Below are positions 1 to 8,435 of a stretch of 64,000 nt of DNA, in pieces (position 1 is the stretch's first letter; every line of letters begins with the position of its first letter). The DNA comes from an uncultured Spirochaetota bacterium. GTDB lineage: Bacteria; Spirochaetota; Spirochaetia; SZUA-6; Fen-1364. Both the position numbers and the translations under genes were made by a program. The stretch covers positions 1,536,001 through 1,600,000 of the forward strand of contig CAWGAA010000001.1 of the NCBI GenBank assembly GCA_963820525.1. Reading direction: 5' to 3'. The notes below the pieces were generated by a model that saw only the letters and a program-made list of their open reading frames with translations, ran no database searches and was not told the origin of the DNA.

Positions 1-134
1 CGCCTGGGGGCCAAAGGTTTGGCGATATTATCCCCTCTCGATTCTCTTTTTTCCGCTTGACATTTTACCGACAACCTTATATTGTCAGAGCCATGAGAAA
101 CGGTTCCAGGAGCGGGACCGGGAAGGGGGCTCTC

Positions 135-1112
135 ATGACGGGGATACTGATTGACCGGGCGAAGGCGGAGAGGGAGCAGCGGGTCAAGGTTGTGGTGGCG
201 AAGATCGCGCACGAGGTGCCCGAGCTGGCCGACCTGGACCCCGAAACTCTGGAGAAGGTCGCCCGGGTGGCGATGCTCGATGAAGTGAAAGGCAAGCTGA
301 GGAAGGCGGCCGAGCTGGAGCGTATCGACTACCAGGGAGAGCGGGAGCGGTTAATTGCCAGGGCGAGCCGCACGGGATCGAAGCGGACGCGGAAGCTGTA
401 CGCTGCGGCCCTCGACCGGCTGGAGGCGTGGTGCGATCGGCAGGGTATCTCCCCGCTGCAGCTGACCCCGGCCCGGGCTGACGACTGGATTGAGGCGGAG
501 AAGGCAGAAGGAAGGGCTCCGGCGACAGTGCGCCTGGCCGTGAGCGGTGCCTCCGCGTTCTGGACTTGGATGGAGAGGCGCCACTATGAGCTGCGCAATC
601 CGTTTCGAGGTACCAGGGCACGGCCGATGAGCAGGCCCGCGCGGAAGCTGGCGCTCCCCTCGGACGTGGAGATCCACGAGCTGGAGGCCTCGGCGAAGCC
701 AGAGCTACGGGCGGCCATCGTCATAATGTCGCAGGCGGGCCTACGTGTTGGAGGCCTCCCCGGTCTGTCGATCACCGGCTCACGCTGGACCACGACAAGC
801 AAGGGCAAAGAGCAGAGCGGCAAGGTTCCCGAGGAAGCACGGGCGGCGATCACAAGAGCGGGGCTGTCCCTGCGATTGCCGTTCAAGGCCTTCACGCCGG
901 AGCAGATAGCGCAGGCCTTCAAGTACCTGGCCGGGAAGCTGCACGCGGCCGGAAAGCTCCAGGCCCGCTACTCCGTCCACGACCTGCGCCACGCCTTCGC
1001 GGTGCGGCTTTATGAAGCAACGCACGATGTCTACCAGGTGGAGAAGGCCCTTGGGCATGCGAACGTGGCCGTCACCGAGGCTTACCTGCGGTCAATCGGC
1101 ATGGAGGGCTGA
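135..1112 (+). CDS. Tyrosine recombinase/integrase (resolvase-like)
   Basis: Catalytic motifs GLR, SKGK, HDLRH, LGH, TEAY; SAM-like N-terminal region; ATG135 after ggaagggg RBS. Confidence 0.9.
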   Translation: MTGILIDRAKAEREQRVKVVVAKIAHEVPELADLDPETLEKVARVAMLDEVKGKLRKAAELERIDYQGERERLIARASRTGSKRTRKLYAAALDRLEAWCDRQGISPLQLTPARADDWIEAEKAEGRAPATVRLAVSGASAFWTWMERRHYELRNPFRGTRARPMSRPARKLALPSDVEIHELEASAKPELRAAIVIMSQAGLRVGGLPGLSITGSRWTTTSKGKEQSGKVPEEARAAITRAGLSLRLPFKAFTPEQIAQAFKYLAGKLHAAGKLQARYSVHDLRHAFAVRLYEATHDVYQVEKALGHANVAVTEAYLRSIGMEG

Positions 1113-1745
1113 GGCCCAGCCCTCGCGCTGCTCATGAAGAAGAACAAGGTCCGACCGTTCGCTACTGCGCTGCACTCCATCATCCTCATGCTGTCGATGG
1201 AGAGCTGACACTCATCCTCACCACCACCACGCGCACCAACACTCCATCGACGCACAACTATCCGGTACCAGGAGCCAGCCGGTAGTAGCAGCACCATCAC
1301 TCCCTCATCAACTGTGAGCAGGAAGACAAGACGGCACACTCACCACCACCAGATTCCAGCCTCCAGGCCAGCCACCAGCCGCCGGCACAGCAGGGGACAG
1401 CCCCCCTCCCTCGCCCCCCAGGGAGCACGGGGACACCGGGAGGCGCCACCCCCCCTTGGGCCAAGACTGCCCCGGCGAAAATCACTTCATCACCTACACC
1501 ACACCGCGGACCGAAAATTCGGTGTGCAGCACTCAAATGTGCAGCATATTGGTATTGCACGCCCCAGACGCGCGTAGAGGGGTCTAGATTGCATTTTCCT
1601 CCGGGGGTGTGTCCCCATATTCGGCTACAGAGCTGAAGGCAGGGGCGCGCCGCATCCCCCGCGGCCTGCGGGCGGATTCGCCCTGGGGCTCGGCTTTCAC
1701 CGCGGGGCGAAAACACTTACGGCCAATCTGAACGTGGGACACAAT

Positions 1746-1791
1746 ACGGTCATGGAGATCCCGTCTGCGGTCCCTGGGGCTTGCAGGGTGA
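1746..1791 (+). pseudogene. Short decayed integrase 3' tail remnant
   Basis: gtcatggagatc(ccgt)ctgcggtccctggggcttgcagggtga reads VMEI-LRSLGLAG*, against VTEAYLRSIGMEG* at the end of 135..1112. Short match. Confidence 0.5.
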
Positions 1792-1843
1792 CGCCAAAAA
1801 TGAACACAATGAAACGGATTGAAGTAAAGGAGGACAGAAGAAT

Positions 1844-2128
1844 ATGAAAATGTCACTGACGATTGAACAGGGGAAAATACAGATAGAAGCCTTGCTGCGC
1901 AAAGTCGCTGAGGAGCAGGGAGTCAAGGTGGCGGGTGTTCGGTGGCGGCAGGAAACGAGTGACCCGCCGCTGTACTACCTAGAGGCCACCAGCGACACTG
2001 GTAGAACAGACGACATGAAGTTTTCGCCCAAGCATCTGGCTGGCTGCGAGTCGGACAACCAGATGAAGTCTCAAGTACGCATGAAGATTGAGGGCCTCGT
2101 GATAAGGCTGAAAAAGCCTATGCGCTGA
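1844..2128 (+). CDS. Hypothetical protein (94 aa), island cargo
   Basis: ORF with strong RBS aaaggagg; AT-richer codon usage. Confidence 0.75.
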   Translation: MKMSLTIEQGKIQIEALLRKVAEEQGVKVAGVRWRQETSDPPLYYLEATSDTGRTDDMKFSPKHLAGCESDNQMKSQVRMKIEGLVIRLKKPMR

Positions 2129-2192
2129 AACCGGGATGGCAAAACCATACGGCAAGCCCTCCGCGGATCGCACCACGACCCGCATCTAGCGT

Positions 2193-2369
2193 ATGGTACG
2201 CATTGTCGCAGGGCTGCGGGCGCGCTACTCTGTCCATGATCTGCGCCACGCCTTCGCAGTCAAGCTGTATCAGGAAGGCCGGGATATCTACGCCGTGAGC
2301 AAGGCGCTCGGCCATGCTGGGGTTGCCGTTACGGAGCGCTACTTGCGGTCTCTAAACTTGCTCGATTAG
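2193..2369 (+). pseudogene. Tyrosine recombinase C-terminal fragment (58 codons)
   Basis: MVRIVAGLRARYSVHDLRHAFAVKLYQEGRDIYAVSKALGHAGVAVTERYLRSLNLLD*, a clear paralogue of the 135..1112 tail; lacks the N-terminal and R/K regions. Confidence 0.9.
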
Positions 2370-2408
2370 AGGGGAACATGTATAGTCAGTCTGGAAAGGG
2401 GAAAAATC

Positions 2409-2645
2409 ATGAAAGTAAAGGAACTTATAGAACGGCTTCAGAAACTTGATCCAGAGTCAGAGGTGGTTTGCTATTCAGAAGATCCCGCCCTTTTGCCAGA
2501 CGGTTGCGGTTTCGTGCTCTTGGAGATTGAAGACGTGGACGAAAGAGAAGCGAAGCCGATAAGGATCAAAGATAATATCCCATACTTGGATTTTGAATAT
2601 GGCGCTCCTAAGCAGGCCTTAATCAGCGTCACGTCTGATTTTTAA
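2409..2645 (+). CDS. Hypothetical protein (78 aa), island cargo
   Basis: MKVKELIERLQKLDPESEV start typical of small phage/MGE proteins; RBS aaagggg; candidate promoter ttgctc-17-tatagt at 2358-2386. Confidence 0.75.
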   Translation: MKVKELIERLQKLDPESEVVCYSEDPALLPDGCGFVLLEIEDVDEREAKPIRIKDNIPYLDFEYGAPKQALISVTSDF

Positions 2646-2679
2646 GACAGCCTAAGACCTGTAACCGATTAGACACCCT

Positions 2680-2746
2680 TATCAGGAAAGGCCAAGATAA
2701 CGCGGCAGTCACCGAGCGCTATCTGCGGAGCCTGAGGCTGAAATAC
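2680..2746 (+). pseudogene. Internally deleted integrase 3' tail remnant
   Basis: tatcaggaaaggcc matches tatcaggaaggcc of the 2193 fragment; 2705-2734 then encodes AVTERYLRSL. Confidence 0.8.
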
Positions 2747-2808
2747 GCGGGCATCCTACGCTCTACCAGCAAAAAGCAGCGCGGCAGGTGGGGGTGTCGG
2801 ATTATTCA

Positions 2809-2837
2809 TTGACAGGTTATTCGACAAGGGCTATAAT
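2809..2837 (+). promoter_or_regulatory. Consensus sigma70 promoter for the 2882-4087 operon
   Basis: TTGACA-17 bp-TATAAT exact consensus, 44 bp before ATG2882. Confidence 0.85.
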
Positions 2838-2881
2838 TCAATCAGGAAAAAAGATAAATTGTTCACGAGGAGATCAAAGCT

Positions 2882-3190
2882 ATGGCAGAAAACCCTCCCC
2901 AGCCGTCGCAGGCAGCTCCTGTTCCCATGCCGGCTCAACGACTCTTCGAACAAGGCCCAGACGCTGTATCCTTCTACTCGGATCTGGTCCAGGTGCTCAA
3001 CACGGGGTCTGAGGTAGTGTTCCAGTTTTACGAAACCATACCGGGCCCACCGACGAGTCCTGCCGGGCAAATCACTCATGTTAGGACGCGATTACGAGCT
3101 ACCATACAGCTCAGCCCTGGACACGCGCTCAACATCGCCAATAACATCCTCGGACAAATGAGGGTGGCGGCAAACAAACCCGGAGCGTAG
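2882..3190 (+). CDS. DUF3467-like small protein
   Basis: FYSDLVQV..GSEVVFQF..RATIQLSPGHA pattern resembles DUF3467; RBS aggag. Confidence 0.6.
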   Translation: MAENPPQPSQAAPVPMPAQRLFEQGPDAVSFYSDLVQVLNTGSEVVFQFYETIPGPPTSPAGQITHVRTRLRATIQLSPGHALNIANNILGQMRVAANKPGA

Positions 3191-3192
3191 AG

Positions 3193-3663
3193 ATGAAGAT
3201 TACCTTGACGGAATCCTCGATGGCGACAAAATCGGTTATGCTGCAAAAGATTCTCAAGTCGGCTCTTACGAGCGCATCCTCTCCGGCGGAGGTCTTGAAG
3301 CAACTCAGTTCCTACGGCATTGAATGGTATCTGACAGAAAAGGGCACTCTTGCGATCAAATATTGGCAGATCGGTGCTGAGGATTTTGTACGACCAGAGC
3401 AAGTAGCGGCGCTACGTGAGGGTTCAAGCGAGCCGCCCGAAGCAGATGCTCTCGAATGGGTGAGCAAGAACCTTCCCGATCTTAGAAATCAGTATCCAGG
3501 GAAATGGGTAGCTGTCGTTGACAATTGGGTCGCCTGTTCCGCAGACGACCTTCCGTCACTTATGAGGCAACTCAGTGAAGAAGGGGTTGAACGACCCTTC
3601 ATCACGCAGATCCCGACTCACGAGATTGTCTGGACAACCACCTATGCCTACAAAGGACTTTGA
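3193..3663 (+). CDS. Protein with C-terminal DUF5678-like domain
   Basis: EWVSKNLPDLRNQYPGKWVAVVD...PFITQIP resembles DUF5678; starts 2 bp after the previous stop. Confidence 0.65.
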   Translation: MKITLTESSMATKSVMLQKILKSALTSASSPAEVLKQLSSYGIEWYLTEKGTLAIKYWQIGAEDFVRPEQVAALREGSSEPPEADALEWVSKNLPDLRNQYPGKWVAVVDNWVACSADDLPSLMRQLSEEGVERPFITQIPTHEIVWTTTYAYKGL

Positions 3664-4087
3664 ACGAACGGTTCAATTCTACTCATTCACTGATCCAAAT
3701 GGGAAAACCATTTCTTTCCCCCTCGTCGTAGTCAATCTGATTCAAACGGGGGGAACCAGGGTATCACTGTCTCTTCTGTTCGACACCGGCGCGAGCGTAA
3801 CTTCTCTTCGTCGGGACTTGTATCCGTTGCTTGGACTAACTTCGTGGGATGCTGGAGCGCTCCAGCAATCTCAGACTGCCGGATGCGATGCGCCAGTAGA
3901 TGGTTACCGGTATGAAGGAATTGCACTGGAAGTTTTCGGGAAAGTGATAACCTGTCCCGTTCACCTAATCAAAATGCCGCAGAATCCGTTATTTGTTGGT
4001 CTGCTTGGCAGAGACACTGTGTTTCAGGAGTTCGGCTTTGGCTTTTGGGAAGGGACCAGGGAACTGCATGTAACATGCACGCCATAA
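3644..4087 (+). CDS. Retropepsin-like (clan AA) aspartyl protease
   Basis: LLFDTGAS active-site motif and LLGRD motif; ATG3644 overlaps the upstream gene. Confidence 0.85.
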   Translation: MPTKDFERTVQFYSFTDPNGKTISFPLVVVNLIQTGGTRVSLSLLFDTGASVTSLRRDLYPLLGLTSWDAGALQQSQTAGCDAPVDGYRYEGIALEVFGKVITCPVHLIKMPQNPLFVGLLGRDTVFQEFGFGFWEGTRELHVTCTP

Positions 4088-4120
4088 ATGTGCCTGCGCT
4101 TGTTTCGTCGAACGTCTGAA

Positions 4121-4280
4121 TTACTCTCCCGAGCCTTCTGGAAGTCGATTTCCTTCCCCGCGTCGTAAAGGTCCGTCATTTTCGCAGTGCGATGGCCGGT
4201 GAAGCGCCGGAGAACCGCTTCGGGGGATAGAGCCCCGGGAGTTGAGTGTTATACTAGTAGCGAAGGCTGTGGAATATGAT
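4121..4280 (-). pseudogene. Degenerate tyrosine integrase C-terminal remnant
   Basis: Minus strand reads IIFHSLRY*YNTQL, then after frameshifts PEAVLRRFTGHRTAKMTDLYDAGKEIDFQKARE (HxxR, GH, Y motifs), with an in-frame stop. Confidence 0.8.
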
Positions 4281-4360
4281 AGCGCTTTAAATAGCCTATC
4301 AGGCTGATCTCCCCTGTTGTCCCGTAAACATTTAGCCTCTGTCCGTCGGCGAGAACGTCG

Positions 4361-5557
4361 TCACTGCGCCTTCTTGAACGGCAGTATCTTCGCCTGGACC
4401 TTCCGCAGCGCCGCGCGGTCTGCGTTCGTGACGTGCTGGTATCCTTCCGTCGTTTCAAGGTTCGTATGGCCGATGAAGTCCTTCAGGGCGGCTGCACTAA
4501 GTCCCGTCGAATGAGAAACGAGACTGTGGCGGAAACTGTGGAACGTCCGACCGCCTGGGAGCTTCGCCGCCTTCATCGCACGCTTGAACGCCTTTTCAAG
4601 CCCCGTCCGCCCGATAGGGATTGAAGGATCATCCGTGTTGAAGAATACGAAATCATCCGGGCGAGCTCCCCACCGGTGGATCGCCAACACTTCTCGGATC
4701 GCATCCGCCACAGTATCGGGGAGCTCGATCCCGAGCCGTTCGCTGCCCCACTTCGGCGGCTTTGATCCTTCCACGTCTTGCCAGCTTGTCACCACGTCGA
4801 GATAGCTTTTCTTCTTGGCAAGGTGGATGTTCTTGACAAGGAGCCCGCGGACTTCCCCCATCCTCATGCCGGTGGTAGCTGAGAGAAGGCAAGCGGTTTT
4901 ATAGCGGATATCCGGCCAGTCAACGGCCCAAAGCCTCGCGTATTCGTCGAGCTGGAATATCTGCCGCTTCTCTGGAGTCTCATGGACAGACTTCACTCCC
5001 TGCCCCGGATGGTACGGGAGAAGCCCCACGTCTACAGCATGTCGGAGCGGAACGAAAAGGGCTTGGCGCGCCATGTTCAAGGTCCGAGGGGAAATCTTTC
5101 CCGGAGTGACATAGGTTTCGTATGTCTCGACGCGCCAGGAGAGAAGGATCTTCCGGTTGAGATCCGCAAGCTGTACGATCCCGCGCGCCTTAAGCCAGGG
5201 GAGAACGTAGGTTTCAAGAAGCCGTAGGTTATTTGCGCAGTATGCCACAGAGATAGAACGACCTTCCTGGACCTTGCTTTTTATGTAGTCTGACTCTGCG
5301 GGATTCCAGAACGTGAGAAGATAGTCGCGGATCCCGCTCTTGCTGGCGAAGACTTCCCCCTTCTCGATCATCTGGTTGGCAACTTTACGCGCGAGCGCAA
5401 TATTCCCGGTGTCCGTCGAACGGACCGCCCGATAGCGGCGCCTCCCGTTTTTGCCTACCAAGTCAGAGAGAAACCCGACGTAGTAGATGGGCTTTCCTTT
5501 CTTGCTCTTGCGCTTGAGTAGGTGAAACTCTACGTCGCCGAAACTATAGTTTTGCAT
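4361..5557 (-). CDS. Tyrosine integrase (tRNA-associated)
   Basis: TGMRMGE, PKWG, FHSFRH, IGH, TEGY motifs; RBS aaggagag; adjacent to the tRNA 3' end. Confidence 0.93.
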   Translation of the reverse strand: MQNYSFGDVEFHLLKRKSKKGKPIYYVGFLSDLVGKNGRRRYRAVRSTDTGNIALARKVANQMIEKGEVFASKSGIRDYLLTFWNPAESDYIKSKVQEGRSISVAYCANNLRLLETYVLPWLKARGIVQLADLNRKILLSWRVETYETYVTPGKISPRTLNMARQALFVPLRHAVDVGLLPYHPGQGVKSVHETPEKRQIFQLDEYARLWAVDWPDIRYKTACLLSATTGMRMGEVRGLLVKNIHLAKKKSYLDVVTSWQDVEGSKPPKWGSERLGIELPDTVADAIREVLAIHRWGARPDDFVFFNTDDPSIPIGRTGLEKAFKRAMKAAKLPGGRTFHSFRHSLVSHSTGLSAAALKDFIGHTNLETTEGYQHVTNADRAALRKVQAKILPFKKAQ

Positions 5558-5581
5558 AGCTCTCTCCTTCCGGTGAAAGCG

Positions 5582-5657
5582 TGACGACTACCTGACGACT
5601 AAAAGCTATTTTGGCCTCTTCTGTAGGAAAGTCACTATATTTGCAAGTATTTGCAAA
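5582..5657. repeat. Candidate integrase arm-type sites and palindrome
   Basis: tgacgacta direct repeat at 5582-5590 and 5593-5601; tttgcaa-gtat-ttgcaaa palindrome at 5640-5657. Confidence 0.5.
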
Positions 5658-5674
5658 GAAAGGAAATAACCTTT

Positions 5675-5748
5675 TGCGTCCAGCCCGACTCGAACGGGCG
5701 ACCCACAGCTTAGAAGGCTGTTGCTCTATCCAGCTGAGCTATGGACGC
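5675..5748 (-). tRNA. tRNA-Arg(TCT)
   Basis: gcgtccatagctcagctggatagagc..acagc-cttctaa-gctgt..gttcgagtc..tggacgca cloverleaf; CCA not encoded. Confidence 0.97.
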
Positions 5749-5751
5749 ATG

Positions 5752-5824
5752 TCGGGATGAGTGGATTCGAACCACCGCTCTCCTGCTCCCAAAGCAGGCG
5801 CCTTAGCCGCTAGGCTACATCCCG
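5752..5824 (-). tRNA. tRNA-Pro(TGG)
   Basis: cgggatgtagcctagcgg..cctgc-tttggga-gcagg..ggttcgaatcc..catcccga cloverleaf. Confidence 0.97.
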
Positions 5825-6047
5825 AAGGCGAGCGCAAGCGATCGGCGGCGAAAGAGCCGCCCAAGGCCGCCGCTTTCCACGGACTCCAGCGCTTTCCCGA
5901 ACACGAAATGTACGGCTTTTGGGGGAGGCGGTCAATCGTCGGCGGCTCGGCGCGGCTGTCCTGCGGCTCGGCGCCGAGCCGTCGTGGGGCGGCGCTTCAG
6001 GGATTGGCATCGCGCCAGCACGAGCGAAACGCTGGGCGCTTTCCCCC

Positions 6048-6500
6048 TTACTCGTCGCCGGAGATGGCCCGCAGGAACCGGCCGCGATCGGCTCCTTCCT
6101 TGAGCACCACGAGCAGGGTATCGTCTCCGCCCACGGTCCCGATCACTTCGGGGATGTTCAAAAGATCGATTGCGTAGGCGATCCCGGGAGCGTGGCCCAT
6201 CTTTGTCTTCACGACGGCCAGATTCCCGGAAAAATGGATGCCCGTGATCTCCCTGTGCAGATCGTCGCGGATGAAGGGGTCCTGTGTCGGCTCTTTTGGA
6301 GGGTCAACGGTATAGAGGTACTCGCCGTTGGTGTCCGGCACCCGGGCGACGCTCAAGAACTTCAGATCCCGGGAGAGAGTCGCCTGCGTCACGTCGACTC
6401 CCTCCTGCTCCAGGCGCTTGAGCAGTTCCTCCTGGCTGTGGATCCGCTCCGCATGGAGGATGTTATGGATCAGACGCCGTCTCGATTCCTGGCTTTTCAG
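6048..6500 (-). CDS. argR: Arginine repressor ArgR (CTG start)
   Basis: SQEELL, VTQATLSRDL, GTVGGDDT motifs. The frame extends to CTG6500, 7 nt after a taaggagg RBS, with an in-frame TAA just upstream. Confidence 0.92.
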   Translation of the reverse strand: MKSQESRRRLIHNILHAERIHSQEELLKRLEQEGVDVTQATLSRDLKFLSVARVPDTNGEYLYTVDPPKEPTQDPFIRDDLHREITGIHFSGNLAVVKTKMGHAPGIAYAIDLLNIPEVIGTVGGDDTLLVVLKEGADRGRFLRAISGDE

Positions 6501-6531
6501 ATCCGTGCCTCCTTACCGGAAAATTAAGAAT

Positions 6532-6585
6532 AGGGAATAATTATAAGGGGAGGTCATAATTATGCAAGTGCCGGCTCTCTGTCAA
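6532..6585 (-). promoter_or_regulatory. argR promoter with candidate ARG boxes
   Basis: Minus-strand TTGACA (6580-6585) and cataat. Two AT-rich ataattat-centred sites (6537-6544, 6556-6563) resemble ARG boxes, but their 19-bp spacing is non-canonical. Confidence 0.5.
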
Positions 6586-6701
6586 GCACCCTGGCAGAGA
6601 TGGGCCGAGAGGCTCGGCCCCAGCGGCCTTCGGGCTTGAACCCTAAGTTTTGACAATTCACAGGGCGGGCATTAGACTACACTGGAACGGAGAAATCCAG
6701 A

Positions 6702-8435
6702 ATGGATAACAGCGAGATCGCCGCCATTCTCCATGAAATCTCGGTGTTCAGCGATCTTTCCGGAGAAAACCCCTTCAAGTCCCGCGCTTTCGACGCCGCG
6801 TCCCGCGCCATTGATCAACATCCCGAGCCCGTGTCCGAGCTTGCCGCCCAGGGGCGTCTTCGGGAAGTCAAGGGCATCGGAAAGAGCATCGAGGAGACCA
6901 TCCTCGACATCGTGGCCCACGGCAGCTCCAAGCTCCTCTTCGAGATGAAGAACAAGTTCCCCCCGCAGATCACGGATCTGCTCTCCCTCTCGGGCATGGG
7001 ACCCAAAAGGGTCAAGGCCGTCTACGAGAAGCTCGGCGTCTCCACCATCGGAGAGCTGGAATACGCATGCCGGGAGAACCGCCTGGCCGTCCTGGAAGGC
7101 TTTGGCGAGAAGTCCCAGGCAAACATCCTTCGCGCCATCGAGTTCCAAAAGACCACCCAGGAGAGCCGCCTTTTCTCGGAGGCGCTCGCCATCGGGGAAG
7201 AGCTTGCGCGCCTGGCCGCCGAGTCCTCGCTTTTCCAGAGCGTCGACATTGCCGGAAGCCTTCGCAGGGGAAAGGCGGTTTTCAAGGACATCGACCTCCT
7301 GCTCGTGCCGAAGAAGGGAAAGACGATCGAGCAGGTGCAGAAGCTCCTCCTCTCATTCGCGGACACCGAACCGGCGGGGTCCGGAGTGATCGGCGCCGGA
7401 GAGACGAAGGTCTCCATCAGGAGGCAGGGGCTCCAGGTCGATTTTCGCATCGTGCCCGCCGCCTCGTATCCCGCCGCGCTCCAGCACTTCACGGGCTCCA
7501 AGGAGCACAATACCCACCTCCGCTCCCGCGCCAAGCTCATGGGGATGAAGATGAGCGAGTGGGGGGTCTACAAGGGCGAGAAAGCTCTGGATGTGAAGGA
7601 CGAGCGCGCCGTATACGAGGCGGTGGGCCTTTCATGGATCCCCCCCGAGATCCGCGAGGCAGACGGCGAGATCGAGGCCGCGGAGAGCGGGAAGCTTCCC
7701 GTCCTCGTGGAGGCGAAGGACTTGCGGGGCATGATCCACGTCCATTCCCGCGCATCGGACGGGGTCCGCTCGATCGGGGAGCTGGCCTTGGAATGCAGAA
7801 AGCGGGGATACTCCTACCTCTGCCTCTCGGATCACTCGCGGACGGCGGCGTACGCCGGCGGACTTTCCATCGAGCGGCTTCGCGAGCAGATATCAGAGGT
7901 GAAGAAGCTCAACAAGGAGCTCTCGCCCTTCCGCATATTCTGCGGCATCGAGAGCGACATCCTCTCCGACGGGAGTCTCGACTACCCGGATGAGGTGCTC
8001 TCCCAGCTCGATTTCGTGATCGGCTCCATCCACTTCAAGCTCTCCATGGACAGGGAGACCGCCACCGAACGGCTTTTGGCGGCGATCGTAAACCCCCGCC
8101 TCACGATACTGGGGCATGTAAGCGGCAGGCTGCTTCTCTCGCGCGAGGGCTACCCCTACGACGAGGAGAAGCTCCTCGACGCGATGGCGGCCAAAGGTGT
8201 GGTTCTCGAGCACAACTCGAACCCGCACCGCCTCGATCCTGACTGGGGAATGCTGAAAAGGGCGGCGCGGAAGGGGGTTCGGATCTCGATAAACCCCGAC
8301 GCGCACGACCTGGATGGATTCGACGACATGAGCTACGGCATCATCATGGCCAGGAAAGCGTGGCTGACGAAGAAAGACGTCCTGAACTGCATGAGCGTGG
8401 AGGAGATCGATGAGTTCTTCCGGAAAAGACGATAA
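6702..8435 (+). CDS. polX: DNA polymerase X family with PHP domain
   Basis: HhH repeats, GSLRR..DID, HFTGS, PHP HVHS/SDHS/NPDAH. Confidence 0.95.
   Translation: MDNSEIAAILHEISVFSDLSGENPFKSRAFDAASRAIDQHPEPVSELAAQGRLREVKGIGKSIEETILDIVAHGSSKLLFEMKNKFPPQITDLLSLSGMGPKRVKAVYEKLGVSTIGELEYACRENRLAVLEGFGEKSQANILRAIEFQKTTQESRLFSEALAIGEELARLAAESSLFQSVDIAGSLRRGKAVFKDIDLLLVPKKGKTIEQVQKLLLSFADTEPAGSGVIGAGETKVSIRRQGLQVDFRIVPAASYPAALQHFTGSKEHNTHLRSRAKLMGMKMSEWGVYKGEKALDVKDERAVYEAVGLSWIPPEIREADGEIEAAESGKLPVLVEAKDLRGMIHVHSRASDGVRSIGELALECRKRGYSYLCLSDHSRTAAYAGGLSIERLREQISEVKKLNKELSPFRIFCGIESDILSDGSLDYPDEVLSQLDFVIGSIHFKLSMDRETATERLLAAIVNPRLTILGHVSGRLLLSREGYPYDEEKLLDAMAAKGVVLEHNSNPHRLDPDWGMLKRAARKGVRISINPDAHDLDGFDDMSYGIIMARKAWLTKKDVLNCMSVEEIDEFFRKRR

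Follow-up and report, generated by a model that had tools for sequence, protein, structure and literature searches.

Organization of the locus

The locus described here lies in the genome of an uncultured Spirochaetota bacterium (GCA_963820525.1, 5.05 Mb in four contigs, hereafter G000), in a stretch of 64,000 nucleotides referred to as the window (G000:C1:1536001-1600000). Coordinates are window positions, with negative numbers for places left of the window start; other G codes stand for related genomes and L codes for fetched loci. An intact tyrosine recombinase gene (rec) is followed here by a 3.2-kb array of small cargo genes and of short sequences resembling the 3' end of rec, called tails. 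In the first-pass annotation, the array was proposed to have grown by repeated recombination at or near the 3' end of the recombinase gene, each event leaving the tail of a donor plus its downstream gene. The region 1113-4360 is interpreted as the accessory end of a recombinase module and as a mosaic of at least three imported pieces of lower GC content. In two of these pieces (perhaps three), the final 20-55 codons of a recombinase gene are preserved, each time from a different, diverged member of the rec family. The central features are as follows.

57..85, + strand: promoter-like site of rec, TTGACA-17-TATTGT
135..1112, + strand: rec, intact tyrosine recombinase of 325 aa, C-terminus ...AVTEAYLRSIGMEG followed by the stop codon
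1101..1123, no strand assigned: 8-nt inverted repeat GAGGGCTG N5 CAGCCCTC, overlapping the rec stop codon
1746..1791, + strand: tail 1, a candidate, frameshifted, ..LRSLGLAG followed by a stop codon, not statistically supported
2141..2198, + strand: S site ('piece A'), a candidate recombination site with a conserved motif of ~55 nt, between orf94 and tail 2
2193..2369, + strand: tail 2, 3' remnant of a diverged rec gene, ~codons 272-325, with an open 58-aa frame
2685..2746, + strand: tail 3, short 3' remnant of another rec gene, ~codons 303-324, normal stop codon lost

The end of rec was the one already read in the first pass. The six catalytic residues (R204, K223, H282, R285, H308 and Y317) were kept as invariant alignment columns. 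The protein matched a PHROG integrase and scored below the cut-offs of the NCBIfam models for XerC (64 vs. 335 bits) and XerD (53 vs. 330), as well as of the integron integrase models TIGR02249 (29.2 vs. 265 bits) and NF011946 (19.1 vs. 435). Judged by these scores, rec appears to be a generic tyrosine recombinase, neither XerC/D nor IntI. Its nucleotide similarity to the closest relatives (L048, L109 and L110; 81%) spanned positions 56 to 1087. Homologues were present in 25/25 genomes of the spirochaete family and also in Treponema, Brachyspira, one Acidobacteria metagenome-assembled genome (MAG) and one Planctomycetota MAG, and none was found in plasmid and phage collections at E 1e-10. According to their titles, the related records are Spirochaetota MAGs from peat, fen, soil and sediment. 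From 144 fetched loci, some representing the same place twice, 128 distinct rec copies were typed, comprising 61 full-length genes, 41 'tails', 20 copies cut by a contig end, 1 head, 2 middle pieces and 3 middle pieces at an end. A family of small integrases (277-305 aa, ending ..DEELF(A/D)GV) was noticed beside rec genes or tails at L040 4110-4943, L171 650-1567 and L120 3096-3781, which hints at paired recombinases.

Tails behind the intact recombinase

A DNA tail profile was made from the last 108 nt of the rec gene in 82 copies, all from other loci, and run on the 5.05-Mb genome. Tail 2 was recovered with an E value of 8e-17 genome-wide. Its segment 2214-2360 was 71% identical to rec at the amino acid level (tblastn E 2e-18), the nucleotide repeat 956-1093/2213-2350 showed 71% identity, and Pfam Phage_integrase was matched at 6e-11. 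Tail 3 (2700-2744) was the third-best match to the DNA profile in the genome (E 1.8e-4) and scored 18.9 bits on a 36-aa tail profile; it shares the ten residues AVTERYLRSL with tail 2, in codons that differ at synonymous positions. Both tails are thus real, as the first-pass annotation held, tail 3 in spite of its shortness. The claim for tail 1 was not borne out. The candidate requires a frameshift and scored 5.2 bits on the DNA profile (E 52), more than 100 places in the genome scoring equally or better, and only 'LRSLGLA' scored on the protein profile (5.5 bits). About 0.04 such matches are expected by calculation on this strand in the 3.2-kb array, which is no more than suggestive of a genuine tail.

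The tails share the strand of rec and precede the cargo at the spacing reported in the first pass, with 52, 39 and ~136 nt from the stop codon or tail end to the next start codon. Over 51 codons, rec and tail 2 differed at a proportion of synonymous sites (pS) of 0.62, which is near saturation, and at a nonsynonymous proportion (pN) of 0.235, giving an omega of ~0.2. The tails therefore come from different, diverged recombinase genes and not from a recent duplication, as had been suspected from their synonymous differences. The GC content drops from 0.59-0.69 over window positions 1-2000 to 0.49-0.57 over 1801-4200, and this drop, together with the near-saturated synonymous sites, indicates that the tails arrived with foreign DNA from diverged relatives. 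Tails 2 and 3 do not include the first catalytic Arg and Lys, and no other integrase was detected within 1113-4129. The tails of the window begin at ~codons 272, 303-307 and 311, three different starts that speak against a shared crossover point for them.

A candidate site and the junction after the rec stop codon

No attC or dif sites had been seen in the array in the first pass. A candidate attachment (att) site, S, was found at 2141-2198, with 16 nt between its end and the start of the tail 2 profile match. The S profile matched 49 times in 34 sequences; the whole of G000 contained just two matches, the second one close to a C-terminal fragment of another integrase gene (intB, see below) on contig C2. 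An alignment of 18 S sites contained no consensus pairs; the conservation of S is one of sequence, not of fold. Downstream of rec, the distance from the end of the match to S was 20-47 nt in L104, L120, L145 and L148 and 0.2-0.8 kb in several other loci. The layout in L148 was rec-S-(70-aa open reading frame, ORF)-S, with 58-nt direct repeats 76% identical to each other, and that in L104 was rec-S-ankyrin-S-..-S-ankyrin, while in L141 S overlapped a tail.

Similarity between loci was often limited to the rec gene, extending from near the start codon to +1 to +60 nt past the stop. In Brachyspira, loci sharing rec and the distant flank contained 0.3-1.3 kb indels directly after the stop codon. 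The sequence GTTGCGATAAT followed shortly after the stop in 9/16 Brachyspira 3' ends, and in 4 of those 9 it formed a perfect 10-6-10 inverted repeat, GTTGCGATAA-N6-TTATCGCAAC, the right arm being degenerate in the others. This pattern has the form of a tyrosine-recombinase core site with its recombinant junctions. In 6/16 Brachyspira loci (L068-L088), a small ORF starts on the rec stop codon instead. Two rec copies of G016 kept 98.7% identity as far as 58-61 nt beyond the stop, where they diverged completely; they belong to ParA/HTH_36-carrying elements on two contigs (L029 8457-11033 and L030) that share a 98.7%-identical segment of 2.6 kb.

The S motif occupies the place of the Brachyspira palindrome in the GC-rich lineages. 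The similarity breaks, the palindrome and the position of S suggest that the crossover site of the family is likely to lie after the stop codon and not at the Tyr codon, which does not support the recombination at or near the catalytic-Tyr end proposed in the first pass. S would be the crossover site of rec as a candidate only.

A 15-nt stretch inside rec (427-441) was complementary at 14/15 positions to the S core (2163-2177), 1.7 kb away, and was the only other match to this core in the genome with at most one mismatch. The 8-mer GTGCGATC of this inverted match occurred in only 1/34 full-length rec genes, and the match was set aside as probably due to chance or specific to the lineage.

Truncated copies in related genomes

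The 41 rows typed as tails were filtered, and dropping 22 of them left 19 truly truncated copies. The rows removed were nine from Brachyspira together with L085 (an uncultured Spirochaetes MAG), which start at profile position 34-39 and have a shorter N-terminus; L034, L042 (1152), L061 and L104, diverged genes either of full length or with a frameshift; L040 4263, L120 3615, L171a and L176a, which are other integrases by Pfam or pairwise comparison; L057, L053, L060 and L080, on weak scores alone; and L176b, a near-duplicate of L171b. The 5' limits of the 19 copies lay at profile positions 98, 149, 162, 203, 214, 216, 248, 249, 263, 270, 271, 272, 274, 274, 275, 277, 295, 303 and 308.

An array census covered 49 distinct full-length rec copies with at least 2 kb of downstream sequence, a tail-profile match of at least 10 bits on the same strand within 5 kb being counted. 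Such matches followed 4/49 copies (window, L136, L061 and L060). The one in L061 was a second near-complete copy, and that in L060 (12.8 bits) was taken for another integrase on its weak score alone, which left true tails behind only 2/49 intact genes, those of the window and L136. An array is thus not a normal feature of the rec gene.

Several tails on one strand were found in six other contigs (L152, L141, L142, L160, L034 and L136), mostly with no intact gene in view. The order in L152 was tRNA-Pro, integrase, tail, 166-aa ORF, tail, and L141 contained three tails. Of the arrays sought in related genomes, several same-strand tails were found, but not a regular array. Same-strand tandem rec copies, which may possibly represent precursor states, occurred in L061, L169 and L030. 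Of 60 weak tail-profile matches, 16 followed a strong match at a distance of up to 5 kb on its own strand; for comparison, the interval 1-6 kb upstream on that strand contained 6 and the opposite strand, again up to 5 kb away, 8. Tails starting from ~codon 272 were also detected directly behind three unrelated integrase genes, in L040 (13-nt overlap), L152 (24 nt) and L171 (525 nt).

Cargo genes between the tails

The sequence between and behind the tails comprises the following features.

1113..1745, no strand assigned: X0, C/A-rich stretch with no supported gene; a 139-aa minus-strand ORF without Pfam match
1844..2128, + strand: orf94, in no family
2409..2645, + strand: orf78, with short N-terminal PHROG matches of unknown function
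2809..2837, + strand: perfect match (12/12) to a sigma-70-type promoter, preceding the three-gene operon
2882..4087, + strand: three-gene operon
2882..3190, + strand: weak DUF3467-like gene of the operon
3193..3663, + strand: DUF5678 gene of the operon
3575..4087, + strand: open frame of a retropepsin-like aspartyl protease; the sequence shows an in-frame ATG at 3644

No function could be assigned to the five cargo proteins by PADLOC, NCBIfam or PHROG searches, the N-terminal PHROG matches of orf78 aside. The reading frames of the DUF5678 gene and the protease overlap (within 3193-4087), and no defence annotation is known for the pair. X0 had no nucleotide match in the other loci. CACCAGC-rich DNA of similar composition was present after rec in L138, L041, L114, L141 and L165, with no alignable similarity to X0.

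The only homologue of orf94 detected was in G024 (L093; 91% nucleotide and 87% amino acid identity), on a contig without rec match, where a strong S site (E 4e-14), and no tail, stands in front of it. The only one of orf78 detected was in G014 (L098; 54% amino acid identity), also on a contig without rec, behind an ankyrin gene that is preceded by an S match (E 0.002); the S-like stretch after this ankyrin gene was weak (E 0.44). In 400 other genomes sampled from the phylum, orf78 was not found. The three-gene operon had no DNA match in 24 other genomes of the family, and the DUF5678 protein had none there either. Neither of the two homologues adjoins rec, contrary to the expected linkage of cargo to recombinase 3' ends, and both stand in S-associated contexts. 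A possible tail remnant upstream of the orf78 homologue in L098 (LDVTERFRSAV and a stop codon) was rejected, as it scored 0.1 bits on the protein profile and gave no match to the DNA profile.

Ankyrin-repeat genes were the most frequent cargo beside rec genes, tails and S sites in the spirochaete family, with one ORF cluster in 6 loci (L104 1631-3862, L028 13010-13992, L042 3941-4935, L046 1-750, L141 483-944 and L098 513-1145).

Genomic island carrying the array

The array is located inside a 12.2-kb island integrated in a tRNA-Arg gene, the near end of which contains the following features.

4130..4280, - strand: intB remnant, C-terminal part (~150 nt) of a third integrase family, ..PEAVLRRFTGHRTAKMTDLYDAGKEIDFQKARE..
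4361..5557, - strand: intA, intact island integrase of 398 aa, beside the tRNA-Arg gene
5674..5749, - strand: tRNA-Arg(TCT), the attachment gene of the island, with 3' repeats to the left

The 3' 44 nt of the tRNA-Arg gene recur at window position -6552 and its 3' 23 nt at -7981, which is 12.2 and 13.7 kb leftward. Counted from the tRNA, the island consists of intA, the intB remnant, the array, rec, Vsr, an EcoO109I-like endonuclease, a Dcm methylase, a D5_N primase and an HTH gene. The Dcm methylase, EcoO109I-like endonuclease and Vsr form a complete-looking type II restriction-modification set directly upstream of rec (L008 8830-11808, window -3170 to -192). A 1.4-kb remnant of an older island lies between the 23-nt and 44-nt repeats (L008 4019-5491, window -7981 to -6509) and encodes a HicA toxin; an adjacent 86-aa ORF without Pfam match may be its antitoxin partner. 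In window positions 1-6000, nothing beyond two tRNAs reached Rfam gathering scores, no check being made that Rfam includes an attC model.

Like S, the island, the intB remnant and the promoter at 2809-2837 had gone unnoticed in the first pass. The intB remnant directly follows the intact intA on the same strand. In relatives (L094 and L096), full-length intB (403-410 aa) adjoins tRNA-Leu. Further intB sequences of G000 were located on contig C2, as a C-terminal fragment at ~15.5-15.9 kb and a 93-nt match at ~40.3 kb.

The region is covered with identical sequence by contigs of two public runs, X1 and X2, which also span 1490-1780, 2099-2500 and 2525-2762. Neither a joint nor a skipped form was listed for these runs; with their low depth (2-7) and possible origin from the source sample, they neither give independent confirmation of the assembly nor exclude circles.

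Origin of the array

The array is explained here, with about even confidence, by the stacking of rec-bearing modules at S-type sites followed by deletions of their backbones and gene heads, that is, by a variant of tandem accretion. Modules bearing rec would stack at an S-type site, which lies a short way behind rec and also forms the borders of small gene units. Deletions, either enzyme-mediated or accidental, would next take the backbone of each incomer together with at least the 5' two-thirds of its rec gene. The result would be blocks of a tail plus its neighbouring gene that are no longer mobile on their own. In favour of this history are the island context, the diverged origin of the tails, the truncated rec copies that are common among relatives, the tandem copies and the tails sharing a strand elsewhere, the junction after the rec stop codon, the S sites and the accretion already known for elements that decay to integrase-less forms. 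We infer both the site-specific stacking and this order of events. The part of the first-pass proposal that stands is the accretion of foreign units; a regular, tail-based integron-like system with the rec 3' end as its repeat unit does not.

Several observations weigh against stacking and decay. A single S site survives in the array of the window, none lying beside tails 1 and 3; orf94 lies on one side of S in the window and on the other in L093; both orientations of S relative to rec occur; and S itself is a putative recombination site. Between the window tails, neither an intact second rec nor a backbone remnant was found, and three separate clean deletions would be needed. When window tail 3, L136 3685 and L141 1844 were added to the 19 truncated copies (n = 22), 8/22 of the 5' limits fell in the 15-position stretch 263-277 (binomial P 8e-6 vs. 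a uniform spread), with the caveats that the limits are spread over ~25 nt at the nucleotide level and that profile alignments tend to start at the conserved HxxR box (box II) just downstream. Random deletion does not predict such a pile-up at codons 263-277. The limits near codon 270, the S sites that end before a tail in the window or overlap one in L141, and the tails behind unrelated integrases are all poorly explained by stacking and decay, and because of them a cassette mechanism is kept alive.

According to this mechanism, which we consider unlikely, circles consisting of a tail, its cargo and in some cases S would be cut out between S and a preferred point in rec near codons 263-277 and would then integrate into a second rec module, either at the S site or at the 3' end. 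The clustering of 8/22 limits would be expected from such cutting, as would the case of L160 and, in L041, an internal deletion ending at codon 270. It would also agree with the S site 16 nt before tail 2, with the one overlapping a tail in L141 and with the arrangement in L160, where no more than 5 nt separate an S site from a weak tail-like match (10.2 bits) behind it. The tails near codon 272 behind three unrelated integrases (L040, L152 and L171) suggest a defined unit inserted in different places, but no homologous unit was seen in two places, and a tail follows only 2/49 intact genes. The limits, moreover, do not fall at one nucleotide, and the tails of the window have three lengths. A counterpart of S within the recombinase gene was not evident either, the best S-like pseudo-site in 29 rec genes reaching 6.8 bits vs. 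up to 5.6 in codon-shuffled controls; the 35 matches inside rec genes vs. 11-25 in the shuffles were not significant, and this candidate was rejected.

An alternative in which the rec 3' end serves as the target of other integrative elements was judged improbable. Such elements would bring a replacement 3' end, pushing the old tail downstream, and would afterwards have decayed. The tails do differ at synonymous sites, and a related pair of small integrases (40% identical) are located just upstream of a tail in L040 and L171, pointing toward it in the manner of an element-borne integrase beside its att site. The upstream integrase of L152, however, is directly beside tRNA-Pro and hence marks a tRNA island, not an element in rec. 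No integrase of another family, nor a remnant of one, was found between the window tails, the blocks measure only 0.4-1.5 kb, and displaced tails should start at one crossover point, which they do not.

The tails could also be unconnected debris, chance survivors of unrelated decay events with no shared mechanism. The same 4-kb stretch does hold the remnant of a different integrase on the other strand, both N-terminal and C-terminal rec fragments exist in the family, and the cargo homologues are unlinked to rec elsewhere. We nevertheless give this explanation little credence, since both supported tails occur within 0.9 kb, on one strand, and directly follow an intact rec, same-strand tails recur in six other contigs, the 5' limits cluster, and the weak tail matches are more numerous downstream on the same strand (16/60) than upstream (6) or on the opposite strand (8).

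Least probable is a 'suicidal' integrase of the type known from the SSV integrases, with an attachment site in the rec frame near codon 272 and head and tail pseudogenes at the element ends: the limits near this codon and one head fragment ending at codon 278 (L036/L062) would suit it, but the last 300 nt of 119 rec 3' ends gave only 10-15-nt, chance-level matches to the 47 G000 tRNA/tmRNA genes (ARAGORN), so that a tRNA-like att inside rec was rejected, while 61 full-length copies are part of chromosomal contigs and their similarity breaks off past the stop codon, no head fragment apart from the intact gene was found in the 14 kb around the array (window -8000..6000), and N-terminal fragments end at many points (full-length-query search of 25 genomes).

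Comparison with known systems

Tandem accretion of the ICESt1/ICESt3 type and cis-mobilizable elements (CIMEs) were reportedly described by Pavlovic in 2004 and Bellanger in 2011. As far as the excerpts of PMC5704250 go, CIME accretion proceeds by repeated site-specific integration at one att site with the incomers losing their integration genes, and integration, decay to an integrase-less element and further accretion are known for streptococcal elements. The array resembles the tandem accretion and CIMEs of those excerpts (PMC5704250) in that integrase-less gene blocks are stacked beside a functional integrase; for tails 2 and 3, the stacked units are decayed elements without integration genes. 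On the scale of the island, the repeated tRNA-Arg 3' ends (44 and 23 nt), which bound the island and its 1.4-kb neighbour, are the classical sign of such accretion. Unlike in CIMEs, the scar that recurs within the island comes from the recombinase gene of the incomers themselves, namely its 3' end, and not from a repeated att site, the interior of the array contains one candidate att (S), and the blocks are very small, with one to three genes.

Phage 21 and e14 are said to integrate at the 3' end of icd and to bring a replacement end. A displaced, synonymously diverged 3' fragment downstream of an intact gene is common to that case and the array. The two differ in that the target gene would here be a recombinase itself, no element integrase lies between the fragments, and the fragment lengths vary.

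Atypical integrons of Treponema, in which intI is transcribed toward attI and the cassettes, and Treponema as the only spirochaete clade known to carry integrons as of 2013 are mentioned in the excerpts of PMC3607928. The rec loci share with them a Spirochaetota host and an order of recombinase, site and one-gene units bounded by related repeats in the same direction. Such site-bounded cassettes beside the recombinase were found in L148 (S-ORF-S) and L104 (S-Ank-S-..-S-Ank); the window has one S. Unlike an integron integrase, rec does not belong to the IntI family (29 bits vs. a 265-bit cut-off), and unlike attC, which has a folded structure, S is conserved in sequence without a common hairpin. 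The rec arrays are, in addition, short and rare, and their cassettes have their own promoters. The integron label was therefore rejected on integrase family and on site structure.

Detached integrase end-pieces beside captured genes, with the possibility of hybrid genes between relatives, are also a feature of SSV-type integrases in the excerpts of PMC7253208, where type I members are given as so far restricted to archaea. The rec loci differ from them in having no att shown in the rec frame, no tRNA match and common intact copies in chromosomes, with the matching heads missing. A Xer/dif (pdif) module was dismissed because rec does not score as XerC (64 vs. 335 bits) or XerD (53 vs. 330 bits), no search for dif-like sites being made, and a shufflon or other set of invertible C-terminal segments because all tails are direct repeats on the + strand, none being inverted.

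Significance for spirochaetes

If the array did arise by stacking and decay, it shows small foreign genes fixed in an island by the breakage of the integrase that brought them, and recombinase end-pieces could be used as markers of old insertions in metagenome-assembled genomes.

A wider interpretation can be put forward tentatively, as possible but doubtful. The rec family, centred on Spirochaetota and neither IntI nor Xer, may run its own integron-like capture platform, with a site after the stop codon, one-gene cassettes bounded by S and captured rec units trimmed near codon 270. The primary site would be located a few to ~60 nt past the stop, as a 10-6-10 palindrome in Brachyspira and as an S of ~55-80 nt in the GC-rich lineages of soil and sediment. 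Behind this site, single genes flanked by further S sites would build up as cassettes, and whole rec-bearing units would, on capture, be trimmed at a preferred point near codon 270, leaving fixed blocks of a tail plus cargo. If this is true, spirochaetes, including the animal-gut genus Brachyspira, would own a second, independently evolved gene-cassette system with a different recombinase and a sequence-defined site, which would add to the known means by which bacteria gather genes.

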